The notes below the pieces were generated by a model. It had not been told where the DNA came from and ran no database searches. It was given only the letters and a program-made list of their open reading frames with translations. DNA of 20,000 nt from an uncultured virus (IMG/VR IMGVR_UViG_3300022867_000010) (taxonomy: Duplodnaviria > Heunggongvirae > Uroviricota > Caudoviricetes). A program made the position numbers and the translations under genes. The stretch's first letter is position 1. Every line of letters starts with the position of its first letter. The stretch is from IMG/VR virus record IMGVR_UViG_3300022867_000010, one strand, 5' to 3'. Below, piece by piece: positions 9,976-18,345 of this stretch.

Positions 9976-10533
9976 TTATGACACACCTTCTTTAAAGTCT
10001 ATGGCCATTTGTTTGGCATCTTCCATAGTTTTTGCTACCCATTCACCTCGCCCTAGATCTGATATACGATGCAAACAACCGCCAATAGTGTTATGAAGAC
10101 TTAAGTTTGGAGTAGTGTTCGTATACTCCCACTTGATATCGTAACATTTTTCGCCTTGCTCTTCAACGATGCCATCGCATCTGACGTTAATGTGGTATTC
10201 ATCCTTCCAAAAATCAATAGCGGCTTGTTTGTCGTCCTCTGGATTATTTGCTATATAATGACAATCACCTTTTACGCAAGTAGACCCAACTTTAAAGCCG
10301 TTCAGTGCACGATGACTCCAACCAAACCATTCTTTTTGTAGAGGACTATACCCAACACCATGTGTCAATTGTTCTGTGATTTCAAGCTTTGCAAGAATCT
10401 CAACCTGATCTTCCATACCAACGTGAGTAATATAAGACTCGTCAAAATTGCTAAAGTAGCAATCCATGTCTTCATCGCAAATATTATAGGGTTTGATATA
10501 CGCTACTTGTGCTAACCATTCTTTTGTATTCAT
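9976..10533 (-). CDS. Hypothetical phage protein
   Basis: 185-aa ORF with AGGA RBS; function not recognised. Confidence 0.75.
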   Translation of the reverse strand: MNTKEWLAQVAYIKPYNICDEDMDCYFSNFDESYITHVGMEDQVEILAKLEITEQLTHGVGYSPLQKEWFGWSHRALNGFKVGSTCVKGDCHYIANNPEDDKQAAIDFWKDEYHINVRCDGIVEEQGEKCYDIKWEYTNTTPNLSLHNTIGGCLHRISDLGRGEWVAKTMEDAKQMAIDFKEGVS

Positions 10534-12124: not shown

Positions 12125-13312
12125 TTAACCCTTTACACAAAGCACTTGTTTAATTTCATGTACAATCTCTACCAAATCGGCCTGAGCTGCCATTACATCA
12201 TCGATAGGTTTATACGCACTTGGAGTCTCGTCTATAATACCTTCGTCTATTCTACACTCCACACCACGAACTGCTTCTTCGTGTTGCTGCATAGTTACTA
12301 ATTTCTTCGCTTGGGTTCTGGACATAACCCGACCGGCGCCATGACTACAACTGTGGAAAGATTCCTTGTTTCCCAAGCCTTTAACTATGAATGATCTCTG
12401 TCCCATGCTACTTGGAATGATACCATATTGCCCTTTCTTAGCAGAAACCGCACCCTTTCGAGTAACCCACACATTTTCGTTGTAATGGTTTTCTTTCTGT
12501 ACATAGTTATGATGACAGTCAACAGTCAACTCATCTACCGTAAAAGGTTGTGTATGTTTTTCAAGCACTTCTAAAACATTTTTCATCATCAAAGCACGAT
12601 TCATCTTCGCGAATTCTTGTGCCCAGTCAACGGCTTCGATATATTGATCGAAGTAGGTCGAGTTTTCTGGTAAATATGCCAAGTCCTCGTCTGGCAAAGA
12701 AATAAAATACTTCTCCATTTCCAACTTTGCTTTCTCAATAAAGTATCTGCCAATAGCATTACCCACACCACGACTACCTGAATGTAGCATTACCCACACC
12801 GAATTGTCTGCTTTCTCGATACACACTTCGATGAAATGATTTCCACCACCCAAGGTGCCTAGATGAGCAATATTGTTTGTCTTCTCGACAGGGGCAAATT
12901 CACGCAAATTATCAAAGCCTGAACTTAAATGTTTATTCCAAGTATCGATAACTTCCTTGGGTAATTTCTGGACGTTATGTTTCCCTTGTCCTACAGGAAT
13001 CACCGCTTCAATGTCTAATCTCATCGATTTTAGGTTAAAAGGCAAGTCAGACGCAGTTAAAGACGTTTTAACGGCTTGCATGCCGCAGCCAAGGTCAACG
13101 CCAACTGCAGACGGGATAATCGCTTTTTTGGTGGCCAGAACTGTTCCTATAGCGCAACCTTTACCTAAGTGGGCATCAGGCATAGACGCAATCCATTTGT
13201 GTATGAATGGCATATCAGCAAGGTTCATTAATTGTTCTTTTGTGTTTTCCGCAAAATCAACACCATCACACCAAGCCTTTACTACATGGCCGCGGCCAGT
13301 TAAAACTTTCAT
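12125..13312 (-). CDS. rtcB: RNA ligase RtcB
   Basis: MPDAH.GKG..IG, VGVDLGCGM, LGTLGGGNHFIE, HSGSRG.G, HHNY, RKGA, SCSHGAGR, DETP.AYK, C-terminal VKG. Confidence 0.97.
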   Translation of the reverse strand: MKVLTGRGHVVKAWCDGVDFAENTKEQLMNLADMPFIHKWIASMPDAHLGKGCAIGTVLATKKAIIPSAVGVDLGCGMQAVKTSLTASDLPFNLKSMRLDIEAVIPVGQGKHNVQKLPKEVIDTWNKHLSSGFDNLREFAPVEKTNNIAHLGTLGGGNHFIEVCIEKADNSVWVMLHSGSRGVGNAIGRYFIEKAKLEMEKYFISLPDEDLAYLPENSTYFDQYIEAVDWAQEFAKMNRALMMKNVLEVLEKHTQPFTVDELTVDCHHNYVQKENHYNENVWVTRKGAVSAKKGQYGIIPSSMGQRSFIVKGLGNKESFHSCSHGAGRVMSRTQAKKLVTMQQHEEAVRGVECRIDEGIIDETPSAYKPIDDVMAAQADLVEIVHEIKQVLCVKG

Positions 13313-13830: not shown

Positions 13831-13862
13831 AATTTAATTTGTTTCTCAATTTCAATACGTGT

Positions 13863-13891
13863 ATTATATCATAAGGTGGGGGTTGTGTCAA
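13863..13891 (-). promoter_or_regulatory. Sigma70-type promoter for the denV-like/rtcB operon
   Basis: TTGACA-17-TATAAT, extended -10. Confidence 0.8.
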
Positions 13892-13937
13892 CAACTTAGT
13901 TGTTATATCGATATAACTGATAGTTATATGGGGGAAT

Positions 13938-14012
13938 TGGTGGGCATGCTAGGGTTCGAACCTAGGATAGCAGATTCAAAATCTGCCGTGTTTCCTACTA
14001 CACTACACGCCT
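13938..14012 (-). tRNA. tRNA-Gln(UUG)
   Basis: Cloverleaf; anticodon arm GCAGA-TTTTGAA-TCTGC; encoded CCA; unpaired 1:72. Confidence 0.88.
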
Positions 14013-14031
14013 ATAATTAGAATATACAATT

Positions 14032-14104
14032 TGGCGCTCCCGATAGGACTCGAACCTATAAATTCCCAGCTTCGTAGGCCGAGTTGCATCCAGTTGCCGA
14101 GAGC
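14032..14104 (-). tRNA. tRNA-Arg(ACG), compact D-arm
   Basis: Acceptor GCTCTCG/CGGGAGC, loop CTACGAA, T-loop TTCGAGT, CCA. Confidence 0.8.
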
Positions 14105-14109
14105 ATAAT

Positions 14110-14274
14110 TTAATAATTTTCGAATTTGCATTTATTGCAGTGGACGTGATGCCTATGGTCTTCTTTGTTTTTCTGGTCACAATTGGTTAGATTACCGGAC
14201 AAGCAATGAGGGCATATTTTACCTGCCTTCAATTTGTCTCGGAACTTTCTATGTTTACCGCTTCTATTAGACAT
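14110..14274 (-). CDS. Small zinc-ribbon protein (54 aa), not in the ORF track
   Basis: MSNRSGKHRKFRDKLKAGKICPHC...HCNKCKFENY*; two CxxC pairs; AGGA RBS; fills the gap between two tRNAs. Confidence 0.7.
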   Translation of the reverse strand: MSNRSGKHRKFRDKLKAGKICPHCLSGNLTNCDQKNKEDHRHHVHCNKCKFENY

Positions 14275-14290
14275 TTCGTTTCCTATAAAT

Positions 14291-14380
14291 TGGCGGAAAG
14301 ATGAGGAGTCGAACCCCTAACGCTACTAACGTCACCACGGTATTCAACACCGTTTGCCGGCCTACCCAGCGGATCAATCC
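14291..14380 (-). tRNA. tRNA-Ser(UGA), 8/4-type
   Basis: Anticodon arm ACGGT-GTTGAAT-ACCGT, long variable arm, 4-bp T stem, G73, CCA. Confidence 0.8.
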
Positions 14381-14390
14381 ATAATTTAAA

Positions 14391-14488
14391 ACTGTCTCAG
14401 GATCGTGCCTGATTAACTGGGTTAAGGACCCATTGCATTATTGCTGTGTCATAGTGCACTAATCACAGAAATTATTATGCTAAACAGT
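14391..14488 (-). ncRNA. tRNA-like RNA with a hairpin inserted in the D-loop and no CCA
   Basis: ACTGTT/GACAGT terminal stem, GCAT/ATGC D stem enclosing a CTGTG/CACAG hairpin, TGGG/CCCA arm, TCAGG/CCTGA T-like arm. Confidence 0.45.
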
Positions 14489-14530
14489 GTGTTATAACAA
14501 GATTTTCTACTATATTCAGTAGATGTAATT

Positions 14531-14617
14531 TGGAAGAAGGTAGAGGTAACGATCCCCGAACGCTATAAACGATCCCTTGGGGTTCAAACCCAATTTGTGC
14601 CCAGCACGGTACCTTCC
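14531..14617 (-). tRNA. tRNA-Ser(UGA), 8/4-type, second copy
   Basis: 8-bp acceptor GGAAGGTA/TACCTTCT, loop TTTGAAC, long variable arm, 4-bp T stem, CCA. Confidence 0.78.
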
Positions 14618-14622
14618 ATTTT

Positions 14623-14696
14623 TGGTAGTCAATGTTGGAATTGAACCAACGTCTCAGGCATGTAAAACCTGTGCTAATCCCCTCAGCTAATCGACT
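14623..14696 (-). tRNA. tRNA-Val(UAC)
   Basis: Canonical cloverleaf, loop TTTACAT, CCA. Confidence 0.9.
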
Positions 14697-14701
14697 TTAA
14701 T

Positions 14702-14770
14702 TGGTGGGCCGAGAGGGTCACGATCCCTCTCTCTCCAAATTATGAGTTTGTTGCTTTCCCAGTTAAGCTG
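14702..14770 (-). pseudogene. tRNA with CAU anticodon lacking its 5' acceptor strand
   Basis: D arm, loop CTCATAA, T arm and TCGGCCC-A-CCA are present, but the 7 nt upstream of the D arm do not pair with the acceptor 3' strand. Confidence 0.65.
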
Positions 14771-14850
14771 TACCAGCCGAGGGATTGAACCTCGTATTGG
14801 ATATCAAAGTGACGCCTTGACAATAATATCCTAGCAAACCATGCGCTGGC
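14769..14850 (-). ncRNA. tRNA-like RNA with an oversized anticodon-arm loop
   Basis: GCCAGC/GCTGGT acceptor, CGAGG-TTCAATC-CCTCG T arm, GGATAT/ATATCC stem closing a ~20-nt loop. Confidence 0.5.
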
Positions 14851-14855
14851 ATTGA

Positions 14856-14926
14856 TGGTGGTGAGCCTAGGTATCGAACCTAACTGATCTGAGATATGAA
14901 CTCTGATTGGTCCCTGACCGCCCACC
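14856..14926 (-). tRNA. tRNA with CAU anticodon (Met or Ile2), compact D-arm
   Basis: Acceptor GGTGGGC/GCTCACC, D arm GGTC-AGG-GACC, loop TTCATAT, CCA. Confidence 0.75.
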
Positions 14927-14933
14927 ATAAAAG

Positions 14934-15023
14934 TGGAGGAAGACGCTGAAATTGAATCAGACACACATTTCTGGTGCGATTTGTTTAGCAAACAATCCTA
15001 GTCACCAGACTAGATCATCTTCC
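14934..15023 (-). tRNA. tRNA-Ser(GCU), 8/4-type with 6-bp D stem
   Basis: GGAAGATG/CGTCTTCC, CTAGTC-TGGT-GACTAG, loop TTGCTAA, long variable arm, CTGA/TCAG T stem, CCA. Confidence 0.82.
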
Positions 15024-15028
15024 GAAAA

Positions 15029-15099
15029 TGGCGACCCGATAAGGAATTGAACCTTACAAGACAACGTTTGGAGTGTCGTCACCGCCCAGCGGCCGAGCC
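15029..15099 (-). tRNA. tRNA-Trp(CCA), compact D-arm
   Basis: D arm CCGC-TGG-GCGG, loop CTCCAAA, G73, CCA. Confidence 0.78.
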
Positions 15100-15104
15100 A
15101 ATAT

Positions 15105-15180
15105 TGGAGGCAAATAAGAGAATCAAACTCTTCAATAACGAATTTGCAATTCGCACCCGTCATCAGCTGGGTCATCTGCC
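15105..15180 (-). tRNA. tRNA-Cys(GCA)
   Basis: GGC start, loop TTGCAAA, U73, CCA. Confidence 0.85.
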
Positions 15181-15187
15181 GTAAAAT

Positions 15188-15259
15188 TGGTGGAGAATAT
15201 CGGTAACGATCCGATCCATCGACATTGCAAATGTCAAGTCTATCCCATACAGATTCCCC
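15188..15259 (-). tRNA. tRNA-Ala(UGC), compact D-arm
   Basis: G3-U70 pair, loop TTTGCAA, A73, CCA. Confidence 0.83.
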
Positions 15260-15357
15260 AAATTTGGTGGACCTTTTAAGAAGGTAGCCGAACCTTTATT
15301 CTATCGCGTGTTCCATATTACACCACATGCCGGACTCGAACCGGATCTCTAAGAATT

Positions 15358-15443
15358 TGGTGGTAGTGGAAGGATTCGAACCCTCAATGACTAGCATACC
15401 TGCGGGTTACAGCCGCGTACCCTTCCTAATGGGTGTCACTACC
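15358..15443 (-). tRNA. tRNA-Tyr(GUA)
   Basis: GGTAGTG/CACTACC, loop CTGTAAC, long variable region, A73, CCA. Confidence 0.9.
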
Positions 15444-15977
15444 TTTGTTTCTTTTCAATGTTCTAGTTGCATTGGTCACCGTTGCGGCACAACTAGAACT
15501 ACAATATTTGTTCTTTCGTTTTTTATAAGATATAGCATCATGACAATATTCACATATCTTAGGAGATTCTTTATATATAGCTTGAGTCTTATAATGTCGG
15601 GCATTAGCTTTTTCTGATGCCCCATTTTCATTAGCTATGCGCATTGCCTTTTGATTTTTAAGTTTTCTCAATTTCTCATTAGAGTTGATATAGTCCCATC
15701 CACCAGAACCACCTAATTTTAGGTTATAGGTATTAGATTCAGCAATGAAATCAAGATTAACAATTTCAGATTCCTTGTTAAACATTTCCTCTGGGTTGTC
15801 ATAAACGAATAAGATTTCTTTTGTGAATTTGTCTAATCCATGTTTGTCCTGAGCGTATTTTAAGTATTTTCCAGAACCCATATAATTGTCGTTCAAATTT
15901 TTGGTCTTATGTGTTCCAATATAGAACTTGCCATTGATTTGATTTGAAATCTTATAAACAGTGTATTTTATTTCCAT
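15426..15977 (-). mobile_element. Free-standing GIY-YIG (Seg-like) homing endonuclease inside the tRNA array
   Basis: [26 protein letters not shown]...E...YNLK.GG.GG; C-terminal CxxC...CSxxC. Confidence 0.9.
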
Positions 15978-15982
15978 ACATC

Positions 15983-15990
15983 TATTTATA
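15983..15990 (-). promoter_or_regulatory. T4-type late promoter TATAAATA
   Basis: Exact match 5 nt upstream of the endonuclease ATG. Confidence 0.75.
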
Positions 15991-16017
15991 ATATTTCGAG
16001 TCTTGACTTCGACTCAA

Positions 16018-16091
16018 GGGAGCAGGTAGGGATAATCGAAATCCACTCAGCACGGCTTGGAAGGCCGGCGACTCACCTCGAGCTTACCTGC
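16018..16091 (-). tRNA. tRNA-Gly(UCC), 3' end reads CCC rather than CCA
   Basis: GCAGGTA/TACCTGC, U73, loop CTTCCAA; short D arm. Confidence 0.78.
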
Positions 16092-16101
16092 AAAAATAAA
16101 A

Positions 16102-16201
16102 CACACGACAGACAGAGGGCGATAACAAATGGGCTTTAACGATATATCAGCATCATCCCTGCCGCACCTCGACGGCTTTTCTCTACTTCATCTGTCGTGC
16201 A
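16102..16201 (-). ncRNA. Structured RNA candidate between tRNA-fMet and tRNA-Gly
   Basis: 11-bp terminal stem GCACGACAGAT/GTCTGTCGTGT with G-U pairs on the minus strand, plus internal GCCG/CGGC hairpin. Confidence 0.45.
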
Positions 16202-16205
16202 TATT

Positions 16206-16277
16206 TGGTAGCGGAAAGAGGACTTGAACCTCTGCTTCACAGGTTATGAGCCTGGAATGCAACCGTTGCGTTCCGCG
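16206..16277 (-). tRNA. tRNA-Met(CAU), initiator-like, compact D-arm
   Basis: C1:U72 mismatch, CGCGG start, loop CTCATAA; only two of the three G-C anticodon-stem pairs. Confidence 0.78.
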
Positions 16278-16283
16278 TTAAAA

Positions 16284-16349
16284 AGGTCGAGAGCGCAGGA
16301 CTTGAACCTGACTATGATTCCCGTATAGGGACTTAACATTGTACTCTCT
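16284..16349 (-). pseudogene. Degenerate tRNA-like element without a D arm
   Basis: GAGAGT/GCTCTC acceptor, CAGG-TTCAAGT-CCTG T arm, TCCC/GGGA hairpin, ends ACCT. Confidence 0.5.
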
Positions 16350-16417
16350 ATAAATTGGCGGCAAACTTTCCATTCGCCTTGCTGATCACCTTGTACAAAG
16401 TGGTAGCATCTACATGT

Positions 16418-16493
16418 TGGCGACCCTTACGAGTTTTGATCTCGTTGCCTCCACCTTGACAGGGTGGCGCTCTCCCGATTGAGCTAAAGGGTC
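16418..16493 (-). tRNA. tRNA-Asp(GUC)
   Basis: Canonical cloverleaf, loop CTGTCAA, G73, CCA. Confidence 0.9.
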
Positions 16494-16511
16494 TTAATTT
16501 AAAATATTCTG

Positions 16512-16671
16512 TCAGGATGGTTGGACTCGAACCATCCATCTAAAGCATTTAGTCAGGACGGCTGGATTCGAACCAGCGTCTCCGCGTTCCAAACGCGGTA
16601 CTAAACCAAGCTCAGCTACGCCCGGACTAAATGCTCTATAAACGTGACTTACCAAGCTAACCTACACCCTG
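16512..16671 (-). ncRNA. Outer tRNA-Pro-like shell enclosing a complete tRNA-Pro
   Basis: CAGGGTG/CATCCTG-A acceptor, D-like TAGGTTAGCTTGGTAAGTC, T arm GATGG-TTCGAGT-CCAAC; anticodon arm replaced by a 13-bp stem carrying the inner tRNA. Confidence 0.7.
16553..16625 (-). tRNA. tRNA-Pro(UGG), nested, no encoded CCA
   Basis: C1-G72, A73, anticodon arm CCGCG-TTTGGAA-CGCGG, T arm GCTGG-TTCGAAT-CCAGC. Confidence 0.88.
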
Positions 16672-16688
16672 ACACAATATTCTAAATT

Positions 16689-16764
16689 TGGTGCGTCCTC
16701 GAGGAATCGAACCTCGTTATCTGGTTCTTCAAACCAGCGCATTGACCACAACTGCCTAAGACGC
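16689..16764 (-). tRNA. tRNA-Phe(GAA)
   Basis: Loop TTGAAGA, canonical T arm, CCA. Confidence 0.88.
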
Positions 16765-16769
16765 GTAAT

Positions 16770-16844
16770 TGGAGCCCCTAGTCGGAATCGAACCAACTTA
16801 TCCGGATTACAAAACCGGTGCATCACCTTTTATGCTTTAGGGGC
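16770..16844 (-). tRNA. tRNA-Thr(UGU)
   Basis: GCCCCTA/TAGGGGC, loop TTTGTAA, CCA. Confidence 0.9.
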
Positions 16845-16848
16845 GTTT

Positions 16849-17003
16849 TGGCATTCCCGATAGGACTCGAACCCTGAACTTGACTTTAGAAGAATCGTGT
16901 GATTTCCAGTTTTACCATACACGCATTATTTGTTATCATGTAATATACACGTTACCTTATATCGACTTATTGCAACGTGCCTATCCAATTAGACTACGGG
17001 AAC
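16849..17003 (-). tRNA. Composite or interrupted tRNA-Arg(UCU), 155 nt with two D arms
   Basis: 5' GTTCCCG (17003) pairs with CGGGAAT-G-CCA (16849); about 80 extra nt lie between the first D arm and a second D arm; loop CTTCTAA. Confidence 0.6.
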
Positions 17004-17047
17004 ATTAAATTGCACAGTAACATTGCTGTTGTTACTGTTTTAAAAAT

Positions 17048-17124
17048 TGGCTCCAAACCTAGGCTACGATCCTAGCACGCTTGCATTAACAGTGCAATGC
17101 CCCCACCTAGAGGGCCCGTTTGGA
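17048..17124 (-). tRNA. tRNA-Asn(GUU) with 6-bp D stem
   Basis: TCCAAAC/GTTTGGA, loop CTGTTAA, G73, CCA. Confidence 0.87.
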
Positions 17125-17200
17125 ATAAATTGGCTCAACCGTATTTTTTTATAAGGCAGCTGAGTTCCTCCTTAGATGATTTACAATTTTTTTTCTACGA

Positions 17201-17446
17201 TCAAGAGTTCGAACTCAAAGAAAGTTTATAAAAATTGTTGCTGCAGCACTGACATCTCAGTTGAATCGTAAGAATACTTTTTGATGGTGATCTGCAAACC
17301 ATATGCAGCGTTATTACCATTAAAAAGTAATCTTTGATTGTTTTCTTAAAATTTGACTTACCCTTTCGAGTATAATCTTTTTTCTTGTCACGCATTACAA
17401 CAGACTTGTTATAAGTACGAGCATGTTTTGCCACTGGATTTTTCAT
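17201..17446 (-). CDS. Small basic protein, ArfA-like (alternative ribosome rescue factor candidate)
   Basis: AGGAGG RBS before ATG 17446; MKNPVAKHARTYNKSVVMRDKKKDYTRKGK resembles the ArfA core ending SYxRKGKH. Confidence 0.55.
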   Translation of the reverse strand: MKNPVAKHARTYNKSVVMRDKKKDYTRKGKSNFKKTIKDYFLMVITLHMVCRSPSKSILTIQLRCQCCSNNFYKLSLSSNS

Positions 17447-17637
17447 CCCGTTCCTCCTATGAAAGATTAATAAAGGCATCTGATTGGCTGCCCAGCAACT
17501 GAGCACTCGCACCAATCATATCCTCGCGGTGATTCTATCATCAAATAGTTAGCGAATCACCGCTTTGTATATTCTAATTTATTGAAGATCATTCATCAGA
17601 GGAACACCCCGATGTATTTCTTATTTCTTATACATGT

Positions 17638-17666
17638 ATTATAACATGGTTTTTCGAACTTGTCAA
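17638..17666 (-). promoter_or_regulatory. Sigma70-type promoter reading into the ArfA-like ORF and the left tRNA block
   Basis: TTGACA-17-TATAAT, extended -10. Confidence 0.8.
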
Positions 17667-17674
17667 TCTTTTTT

Positions 17675-17729
17675 CTTAATTTTCTTTATAATTAATTGTT
17701 ATATCGTTATAATTATAAAGAAAATTAAG
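17675..17729. repeat. Perfect 20-bp inverted repeat with 15-nt spacer
   Basis: cttaattttctttataatta (17675-17694) and taattataaagaaaattaag (17710-17729). Confidence 0.9.
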
Positions 17730-17857
17730 GCCTGATTTGCAGGCCTTAACCATATCTTATGTCGTCTTCTTCTATATTTTTCTATTTTTCAACTAAAGGA
17801 ATTCTTAATTCTTGATTCTTGATCAGCATTTACAAATTCCCAATTTCCTATACATTC

Positions 17858-17886
17858 ATTATAACAGGATTTAGTACCTGTGTCAA
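17858..17886 (-). promoter_or_regulatory. Sigma70-type promoter
   Basis: TTGACA-17-TATAAT, extended -10. Confidence 0.8.
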
Positions 17887-17923
17887 CAACTAATTGCAAT
17901 ATTCTTATAATTAGATTCAGTAC

Positions 17924-18091: not shown

Positions 18092-18116
18092 AATATTTCT
18101 CAATTTCTATACATGT

Positions 18117-18145
18117 ATTATACCATAGTCCCGGCAATATGTCAA
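18117..18145 (-). promoter_or_regulatory. Sigma70-type promoter
   Basis: TTGACA-17-TATAAT, extended -10. Confidence 0.8.
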
Positions 18146-18192
18146 CAACTAATTTCAGTTTAGTTAGAACTTATGGTTATATCGATATAATT

Positions 18193-18266: not shown

Positions 18267-18291
18267 ATAATTTCTCATTTCCTATACATTT

Positions 18292-18320
18292 ATTATAACA
18301 GGATTTTGTGCCTATGTCAA
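18292..18320 (-). promoter_or_regulatory. Sigma70-type promoter upstream of tRNA-Ile
   Basis: TTGACA-17-TATAAT, extended -10. Confidence 0.8.
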
Positions 18321-18345
18321 CCTTTATTTTTAATTTATTCAGTCC

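Follow-up and report, generated by a model that had tools for sequence, protein, structure and literature searches.

A tRNA-Pro gene nested in a tRNA-Pro-like shell in the tRNA array of an uncultured T4-like phage

The stretch of DNA analysed here (20,000 nucleotides, hereafter the window) corresponds to positions 28101-48100 in the IMG/VR virus record IMGVR_UViG_3300022867_000010, which is 198,785 bp long and has terminal repeats. Its minus strand carries an array of tRNA genes in which the gap between tRNA-Phe and tRNA-Asp (195 nt, 16494-16688, minus strand) is filled by two concentric layers, an intact tRNA-Pro gene and, around it, an interrupted sequence resembling a second tRNA-Pro, called here the shell. 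Each layer is enclosed by a leader and a trailer that are complementary to each other. The whole arrangement, referred to as the nest, had been singled out in an earlier note made from the sequence of the window.

Anatomy and fold of the nest

Read in the direction of transcription, the nest is composed of the following parts.

16672-16688, minus strand: outer leader of 17 nt, 5' strand of the basal helix, beginning right after the CCA of tRNA-Phe
16639-16671, minus strand: 5' part of the shell, with the acceptor 5' strand, U8 and A9, a D-like arm, A26, the anticodon-stem 5' strand CACG and UUU(A)
16626-16638, minus strand: inner leader of 13 nt, 5' strand of the inner helix
16553-16625, minus strand: intact tRNA-Pro(UGG), found by ARAGORN and Rfam
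16541-16552, minus strand: inner trailer, C74 to A85, forming with A73 the 3' strand of the inner helix
16512-16540, minus strand: 3' part of the shell, with the variable-loop remnant (A)GAUG, a T-like arm, the acceptor 3' strand CAUCCUG and A73
16496-16511, minus strand: outer trailer, C74 to U89, forming with A73 the 3' strand of the basal helix

Two unpaired A residues (16494-16495) are left between the outer trailer and tRNA-Asp. The gap folds as one concentric structure with a minimum free energy of -88.7 kcal/mol, whereas shuffled sequences reach -49.1 +/- 4.4 (z -9.08, with 0 of 200 shuffles equalling it), so that the earlier note was right in describing it as a single folding unit. The fold of the plus-strand RNA is much weaker (-59.7 kcal/mol).

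The basal helix pairs leader positions -1 to -17 with positions 73 to 89 and runs unbroken into the outer acceptor stem CAGGGUG/CAUCCUG (7 of 7 pairs), which is followed by A73. The note had announced a basal stem of about 18 bp leading into this acceptor; the long stem is there and counts 17 positions, of which 16 are paired, the sole mismatch being G.G at -4:76. The inner helix is perfect, with 13 of 13 leader-trailer positions paired (73 to 85), and continues without a break into the acceptor stem of the inner tRNA-Pro, just as the 13-bp extension had been described. In both layers, U-1 pairs with A73 and the helix goes on unbroken. Each long helix contains one G.U pair (-11:83) and no A.C, hence the minus-strand RNA pairs better, in line with the note's remark that G-U pairs occur on this strand only.

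The inner layer is a canonical tRNA, with a full cloverleaf above the gathering cut-off (Rfam RF00005, 54.6 bits for a cut-off of 29, model positions 1-71 of 71) and the anticodon UGG in the loop UUUGGAA (A37 A38). It shows C1-G72, a C2.U71 mismatch and A73, and it is the only confidently called tRNA-Pro of the phage. The CCA end is absent from both layers. This sets the nest apart from its neighbours, as had been noticed, since, among the 21 tRNAs called with confidence in the genome, 20 encode CCA, the sole exception being the inner tRNA-Pro.

The shell retains its leader and trailer together with positions 1-34, which stop inside the anticodon loop at CACG-UUU, and positions 44-73. However the insert is delimited, positions 35-43 are missing (9 nt, GGAACGCGG in the inner copy), and 3 nt more are lost in the D/anticodon region. 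The D-like arm has 4 bp, GGUU/AGUC with two G.U, and the loop AGCUUGGUA, while the T-like arm GAUGG/CCAAC makes four of its five pairs (A50.A64 is the exception) and closes the loop UUCGAGU. Lacking positions 35-43, the shell has no anticodon and therefore cannot decode. The anatomy given in the note is right, a complete tRNA-Pro taking the place of the outer anticodon loop, but the shell itself is not a tRNA. Its reading as a canonical tRNA was rejected for this incomplete cloverleaf. It escaped ARAGORN with default settings, with relaxed thresholds and in intron mode, nor was it listed by cmscan on 16480-16700, where overlapping lower matches of the same clan are suppressed. In a nearest-neighbour model, the shell halves are best accommodated in rod-like pairing (-88.7 kcal/mol against -76.6 kcal/mol with the cloverleaf enforced).

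The two shell halves are direct repeats of the inner unit: 16497-16534 repeats 16538-16575 (79% over 38 nt, repeat finder D16) and 16651-16684 repeats 16605-16638 (76% over 34 nt, repeat finder D19). None of 2000 shuffles reaches the scores of this similarity, and the tRNA parts of the shell score 23 and 31 against the inner tRNA, compared with 8-19 for six other tRNAs of the array. Because the repeats take in the flanking stems, the repeated unit is, on this comparison, the whole module of leader, tRNA-Pro and trailer. The shell would accordingly be a non-decoding remnant of a paralogous copy of the module and not a second tRNA. At the 5' junction, the outer anticodon loop contributes UUU(A) and adjoins AUUUA, with which leaders of the array begin; at the 3' junction, the variable-loop AGA adjoins the trailer's end. 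Both junctions thus lie at short shared motifs (UUUA and AGA).

The nest is real and not an assembly error, because a second, separately assembled IMG/VR contig (20.9 kb) is 100% identical over 14,567 nt and because contigs of other runs cross both junctions unchanged. Indeed, Logan contigs from other runs cover the nest with 0 differences, one spanning 16508-16850 with both junctions and another 16350-16598. In four DNA runs, whose contigs are fragmentary and of low depth, neither variant letters nor indels or joints were seen. That tandem tRNA-Pro copies had been collapsed, or joined into a chimera, might be suspected from the low-coverage short-read contigs, which break inside the repeat (16522, 16598 and 16636). 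Given that the same sequence stands in the 198.8-kb record and in the independent contig, that both junctions are spanned elsewhere, and that the layers, diverged by 21-24%, are too unlike for an assembler to confuse, such a join has a practically negligible probability, and misassembly, which the note had named as a possible refutation, is excluded.

Leader-trailer helices in related copies

A metagenome contig (L053, JACCDJ010454453.1) carries at 352-524 a tandem pair of tRNA-Pro(UGG) genes. The first one is canonical, with G37 and an encoded CCA. The second one stands alone, without shell and without CCA, has UGG with A37 A38, and is enclosed by a leader-trailer helix of 12 pairs out of 13, with A.A at -1:73. 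Its leader (AAAAUUUAAG...) is homologous to the outer leader of the nest and is likewise placed right after the CCA of the preceding tRNA. Because L053 holds a stand-alone CCA-less tRNA-Pro with a homologous leader and the helix, the module is judged to be older than the nest. The open reading frame (ORF) before the L053 array ends with ...CANCHRKIHH, HNH-like by eye, with no match in Pfam.

The pair counts given here, for covariation as well as for cognate against swapped strands, come from custom scripts applied to three copies, of which two share a single locus. In register, the outer, inner and L053 helices are paired from -1 to -13, save for a single mismatch in the outer copy and another in L053. 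Eight of the 13 pairs differ on both sides yet stay paired (-3:75, -4:76, -5:77, -7:79, -8:80, -9:81, -10:82 and -13:85), whereas G-2:C74, U-6:A78, G-11.U83 and A-12:U84 are invariant. Within the acceptor stem, pair 6:67 reads U-A, C-G and U.G across the copies. Each leader fits its own trailer, with cognate pairing at 12, 13 and 12 of 13 positions, compared with 6-11 for non-cognate combinations and 3-8 for shifted registers. Flank complementarity beyond chance is accompanied by compensatory pairing in the three copies, and the latter supports the note's suggestion of selection on the stems at the RNA level.

Helices of this length are exceptional. Among 424 distinct tRNAs from all loci gathered, the flanks extend the acceptor stem by at most 7 pairs in 420, and by 13-14 pairs in four, namely the inner tRNA-Pro, the L053 tRNA-Pro, the tRNA-His of the source phage and a tRNA-His of another viral contig (L149). 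The tRNA-His(GUG) of the source phage is the first gene of the array and lies 23-97 nt past the end of the window (G000:C1:48123-48197, equal to L154:224-298, minus strand). Its perfect 13-bp helix (AAUAUAUUUUGGG/CCCAAAAUAUAUU) includes the encoded CCA and gives 20 continuous pairs (fold z -4.4). Upstream of it come a GC hairpin, with a U run after it, and a sigma-70-like promoter matching at 12 of 12 positions with a TG extension (L154 525-497, minus strand). Within the source phage, long helices are thus carried by its only CCA-less tRNA and by the first tRNA of its array. The tRNA-His of L149 (290-366, IMGVR_UViG_3300037762_000038) has a 13-pair helix (GCUGUGCUUUGG/CCAAAGCACAGC) that also includes CCA and is of unrelated sequence; unrelated phages thus share this helix design on tRNA-His. 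Judged from these comparisons, the leader-trailer helices are rare, recurrent and structurally maintained, and they represent the selected feature of the locus.

Origin of the nest and competing explanations

The explanation favoured here, in which we place somewhat better than even confidence, is that a complete tRNA-Pro module became nested at the DNA level in an older paralogous copy, the inner gene being functional, the shell a remnant and the helices stalks acting at the RNA level. The module consists of a CCA-less tRNA-Pro(UGG) whose leader and trailer pair over about 13 bp as an unbroken extension of the acceptor stem, and a complete copy of it (16541-16638) occupies the anticodon loop of the presumably older one. 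Because the copies are concentric and each leader fits its own trailer best, the transcript folds as a stalked tRNA inside a stalked tRNA-like shell. The inner gene would then be a working tRNA-Pro.

The outer copy looks like the resident one. It occupies an ordinary position of the array, its leader directly following the CCA of tRNA-Phe as in L053, and its acceptor stem and the 3' strand of its T stem match L053. Moreover, the 24 nt of its T-arm and acceptor 3' strand are identical to those of an intact tRNA-Pro from another locus (L143). Since the T stem of the latter, GTTGG/CCAAC, is intact, A50 in the shell appears as a derived and disruptive change. When 71 ungapped positions were polarised with L053, 5 changes were specific to the shell, 7 to the inner copy and 11 to L053, and 4 positions differed in all three. 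The inner copy is therefore at least as diverged as the shell, which would fit the insertion of a diverged copy better than an old duplication followed by free decay. A shell of this kind, a broken paralogous copy, corresponds to the decayed duplication which the note had set against its own reading, apart from its helices, which show no visible decay.

Two routes to such a nest may be envisaged. A diverged whole module could have been inserted into the resident anticodon loop with the loss of 9 nt, perhaps during the repair of a break made by the homing endonuclease of the array. Alternatively, two tandem partial duplications could have occurred, a 5' one of 46 nt and a 3' one of 41 nt, both with microhomology at their limits. 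The GIY-YIG endonuclease SegB, encoded in the tRNA cluster of T4, cuts tRNA genes at the T-arm motif GGTTCRANTCC (PMC2330249), and by analogy endonuclease breaks in tRNA genes are a plausible trigger of the nest. Homologous repair alone would not nest genes, however; SegB-mediated repair in T4 replaces regions by homology (PMC2330249) and is not known to nest them.

At the RNA level, the helices would act as processing stalks, probably of the RNase III type. A host double-strand-specific cut, probably by RNase III, would first open the outer stalk and then the inner one, after which the ends would be trimmed and CCA added by host enzymes, the shell being carried along as a remnant. The helices measure 20 bp in the inner layer (13 + 7) and 24 bp in the outer layer (17 + 7), lengths that are covered by the cutting range of RNase III. 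The double-strand-specific cut is placed first because an unbroken extension of the acceptor stem makes a poor RNase P substrate; continuous extensions are described as impairing this enzyme (PMC8457004). Involvement of RNase III in the maturation of T4 tRNAs is mentioned in PMC4810235, which cites McClain 1979 and Gurevitz and Apirion 1983. Here the enzyme would be the host's, since a profile search of the phage genome found no RNase III (PF00636); the same kind of search found no CCA-adding enzyme (PF01743).

Several observations weigh against the favoured explanation, most of them by speaking for a shell that is itself a selected RNA element, its second stalk and tRNA-like elbow timing the release of the inner tRNA, shielding it while tRNA-Phe and tRNA-Asp are processed, or acting as a tRNA-shaped decoy or recruiter for host nucleases or tRNA-binding enzymes. 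The rod of the shell (24 bp, 17 + 7) is paired at 23 of 24 positions, unlike freely decaying DNA. Its helix extends 4 bp beyond the 13-bp module of the other copies, fills the spacer exactly and abuts both neighbouring tRNAs. Pair -9:81 has changed from G-C to A-U on both sides on the shell's own lineage, shell-specific substitutions are not in excess (5 against 7), which fits a constrained shell equally well, and U8, A14, G18 G19 and the T-loop UUCGA are retained, so that the elbow could still form. Such intact features fit a young nest and, equally, selection on the shell. In addition, a single strain has supplied every copy of the nest (100% identity), the G.U asymmetry amounts essentially to one inherited pair (-11:83) and may also reflect a hairpin of same-strand single-stranded DNA, and RNase III-type processing is something that we purely infer. 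A selected shell is nevertheless decidedly unlikely. Its parts outside the helices are damaged (the D/anticodon region is short by 3 nt, the T-like arm contains the A50.A64 mismatch and positions 35-43 are absent); the L053 array carries the module without any shell; no second lineage with a nest was found among about 130 related tRNA-Pro loci; and thermodynamic folding favours the rod over the shell cloverleaf. For the release gate and the nuclease decoy put forward in the earlier note, no positive support was found, although the shell helices are notably intact and -9:81 has changed on both sides. Its further suggestion, that the shell is rejoined by the nearby RtcB after excision, does not suit the chemistry of the ends. 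RNase P and RNase Z leave 3'-OH and 5'-P ends, whereas RtcB joins 3'-P or 2',3'-cyclic-P to 5'-OH. Rejoining of the shell by RtcB is for this reason unlikely, and the closest relative of this RtcB (L005, 75% identity) has no tRNA within 8 kb on either side.

It is also conceivable, if unlikely, that the inverted repeats are the DNA ends of a self-compensating 'replacement tRNA' cassette, copied into the anticodon loop of its own target by a cut-and-replace reaction linked to a homing endonuclease, and here into an earlier version of itself. The same gene is indeed present twice, a complete copy between inverted repeats interrupting the anticodon loop of a broken one, an ORF of homing-endonuclease type stands in the array while T4 SegB is described as cutting tRNA genes (PMC2330249), and the inner copy is as diverged from L053 as the outer one or more, as expected of a diverged donor. 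The arms, on the other hand, are conserved in pairing and not in sequence (8 of 13 pairs covary), as a folded strand would predict, rather than a terminal repeat recognised by a protein. Nor is there a target-site duplication or a further copy of the repeat or of the unit in the 198.8-kb genome, the L053 copy is neither inside nor beside a broken tRNA, the tRNA-His genes of the source phage and of L149 bear the 13-bp helix without a nest, and homologous repair of an endonuclease cut replaces a gene and does not nest it. The wider proposition, that the nest is one of a class of undescribed hairpin-bounded self-compensating tRNA cassettes, which would enter the anticodon loop of their own cognate tRNA gene while bringing a working replacement, and whose helix would be both the folded end of a mobile DNA and the stalk of its transcript, or else that the shell has been co-opted as a second gate for tRNA-Pro, is held to be doubtful. 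All in all, rather than a new two-layer tRNA, the nest most likely represents a scar left when DNA was rearranged around a flanking-helix signal that is itself real.

Other candidate identities were rejected. A group I intron finds no match in Rfam at the gathering threshold or at E<=10, and the insert is a 98-nt tRNA module. For a bulge-helix-bulge intron or a split tRNA, both long helices are continuous without 3-nt bulges, and the exons are 9 nt short. An element resembling a miniature inverted-repeat transposable element (MITE) has itself as sole match in the genome, its arms covary instead of being conserved, and it lacks a target-site duplication. The shared word TAGAATAT was dismissed as a motif, with 3 matches for 1.4 expected, a number reached by 34 of 200 shuffles, as was the reading of AAATGCTTTA in the inner trailer as a T4 MotA box, there being by eye no -10 element at the right spacing.

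Searches for relatives returned the nest from the source phage only. Comparison of 16400-16780 with GenBank phages by blastn gave isolated matches to tRNA-Asp, tRNA-Phe and tRNA-Pro, none of which covers the nest. With exact and degenerate DNA patterns, in viral and metagenome contigs, the nest was retrieved only in the two records of the source phage. A T-arm/acceptor pattern fitting both layers was found in 102 metagenome stretches, and two copies of it occurred only in these same two records. None of the 25 RtcB loci scanned for tRNAs, out of 26 (L004, a contig of the same strain, was left out), has a related array.

Some of the loci gathered carry inserts of other kinds. In L147 (502-619, and 4-131 on the minus strand), and identically in L148, jumbo-phage contigs of 476 and 296 kb, tRNA genes scoring 45.6 and 46.7 bits, above the Rfam cut-off, have inserts of 58 and 64 nt replacing the anticodon-loop region. 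One of these tRNAs has the Pro-type acceptor CAGGACG/CGUCCUG-A. Neither insert is a tRNA, and both fall below the size of a group I intron. An environmental tRNA-Pro (L097:438-526, 89 nt) has a hairpin insert in its variable region and the same CCA-AUUUAGAAU spacer as the nest. In L069 (449-694), three tRNA-Pro genes stand in tandem with CCA-AUUUA spacers, and duplications of tRNA-Pro are frequent in such related arrays.

Known parallels and genome context

The nest would fall under two known kinds of arrangement, the rearranged tRNA gene and the leader-trailer stalk. By analogy, the leader-trailer stalk of pre-rRNA would be its closest functional counterpart and the tRNA cluster of T4 its closest biological setting. 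In bacteria and archaea, the leader-trailer helices of pre-rRNA are described as processing stalks for RNase III (PMC11404451, PMC10250234). As in the nest, these accounts have complementary flanks enclosing a stable RNA, pairing kept by covariation while the sequence drifts, and a helix long enough for a double-strand-specific nuclease. The nest differs from the stalks so described in that it encloses a single 73-nt tRNA in a polycistronic phage array, its helix runs into the acceptor stem, and the stalks are two and concentric. The T4 cluster, as presented in PMC4810235 and PMC2330249, shares with the present array its one-strand arrangement, an internal gene for a GIY-YIG-type endonuclease, a CCA-less tRNA-Pro and the need for host processing enzymes, whereas neither long leader-trailer helices nor nested tRNA genes were found described for T4 in the portions of these papers available. 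Extended-acceptor pre-tRNAs of yeast and human and the mascRNA of MALAT1 offer another parallel, as leader-trailer pairing extends the acceptor and affects RNase P (PMC8457004). According to the same account, such extensions are of modest length and are cleaved efficiently only with a bulge or mismatch at -1. The layers of the nest, by contrast, are unbroken over 13-17 bp.

Genes nested in broken paralogs mislead the annotation of tRNAs and may be taken for split or intron-bearing ones. Interrupted, split and permuted tRNA genes are found in archaea and some algae, with bulge-helix-bulge introns and the half-tRNAs of Nanoarchaeum as examples. The nest resembles them in having a long helix that joins two parts of a tRNA where the anticodon would be, but it has no bulge-helix-bulge, its pieces are 9 nt short of a whole tRNA, and its 'intron' is a complete tRNA. 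Furthermore, no splicing endonuclease is known from bacteria or phages. A literature search, with subscription journals outside its reach, found no paper on a tRNA nested in a broken tRNA or on leader-trailer helices of phage tRNAs.

Phage tRNA arrays are usually read as independent genes freed by RNase P and exonucleases. A long helix should block the usual RNase P route and thus impose a different order of maturation, as for rRNA. If a mobile 'replacement tRNA' cassette were involved, phage arrays would possess a new route for the spread and turnover of their tRNA genes. As a mere scar, the nest would still call for caution and provide a natural construct relating stalk length to tRNA release.

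The source phage can be assigned to the uncultured T4-like myoviruses because its gp32 is closest to those of Methylophilales phage Melnitz (60%) and of cyanophages (52%). The stretch is held wholly or partly by 24 metagenome runs from salt lakes and sediment. Besides homologues of gp32 and gp59, the window encodes RtcB, a Tad6-like protein and GIY-YIG-type endonucleases. ARAGORN found 21 tRNAs in the genome, of which 15 lie within the window, all on the minus strand. The features around the nest to which reference was made are the following.

16689-16764, minus strand: tRNA-Phe(GAA) with encoded CCA, upstream neighbour in the same array, found by ARAGORN and Rfam
16418-16493, minus strand: tRNA-Asp(GUC) with encoded CCA, downstream neighbour, found by ARAGORN and Rfam
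15426-15977, minus strand: free-standing ORF of a GIY-YIG-type homing endonuclease (phrog_314 'homing endonuclease', E 2.1e-36)
12125-13312, minus strand: gene of the RNA ligase RtcB (PF01139, E 4.2e-124)

The homing-endonuclease ORF lies inside the tRNA array, about 520 nt from the nest, and is a possible source of DNA breaks in tRNA genes; it also has weak matches, below cut-off, to GIY-YIG and SegE profiles. The minus strand was scanned from 15900 to 17300 for promoters and terminators, and the only site that emerged, weak and promoter-like, lies far downstream of the nest (16017-15988). As no promoter or terminator of its own was found on the transcribed strand, the nest is probably co-transcribed with the neighbouring tRNAs.

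Besides RtcB, the phage has two ORFs of about 340 aa of the RNA_ligase family PF09414 (G000:C1:102127-102645, minus strand, and 152207-152542, plus strand; 50.7 and 49.6 bits), so that it is equipped for both kinds of RNA ends; nothing links these two ORFs to the nest. The ORF at 9976-10533 (minus strand) strongly matches Tad6, an inhibitor of type I Thoeris (PF25188, E 1.3e-31), and places an anti-defence neighbourhood a few kb from RtcB and the tRNA array.

With relaxed settings, ARAGORN reports further tRNA-like genes below the default threshold on the minus strand (window 14004-16277 and 16849-16926), among them Ser, three Met, Trp, Cys, Ala, Gly and Arg(UCU). The tRNA-Sec model scores 45 bits (cut-off 47) at 14938-15023 and the tRNA model 28.6 bits at 16210-16276. 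The array is thus probably about twice its annotated size, with divergent or decaying members. Blocks of the array are bordered by an intergenic repeat of about 60 nt (TTTCTCAATTTC.ATACATGTATTATA.CA...TGTCAACAACTAATT), present in the window at 13842-13901, 17615-17680, 17835-17900, 18094-18159 and 18269-18334. These repeats contain TATAAT-like and TTGACA-like words on the minus strand and may be repeated promoters.

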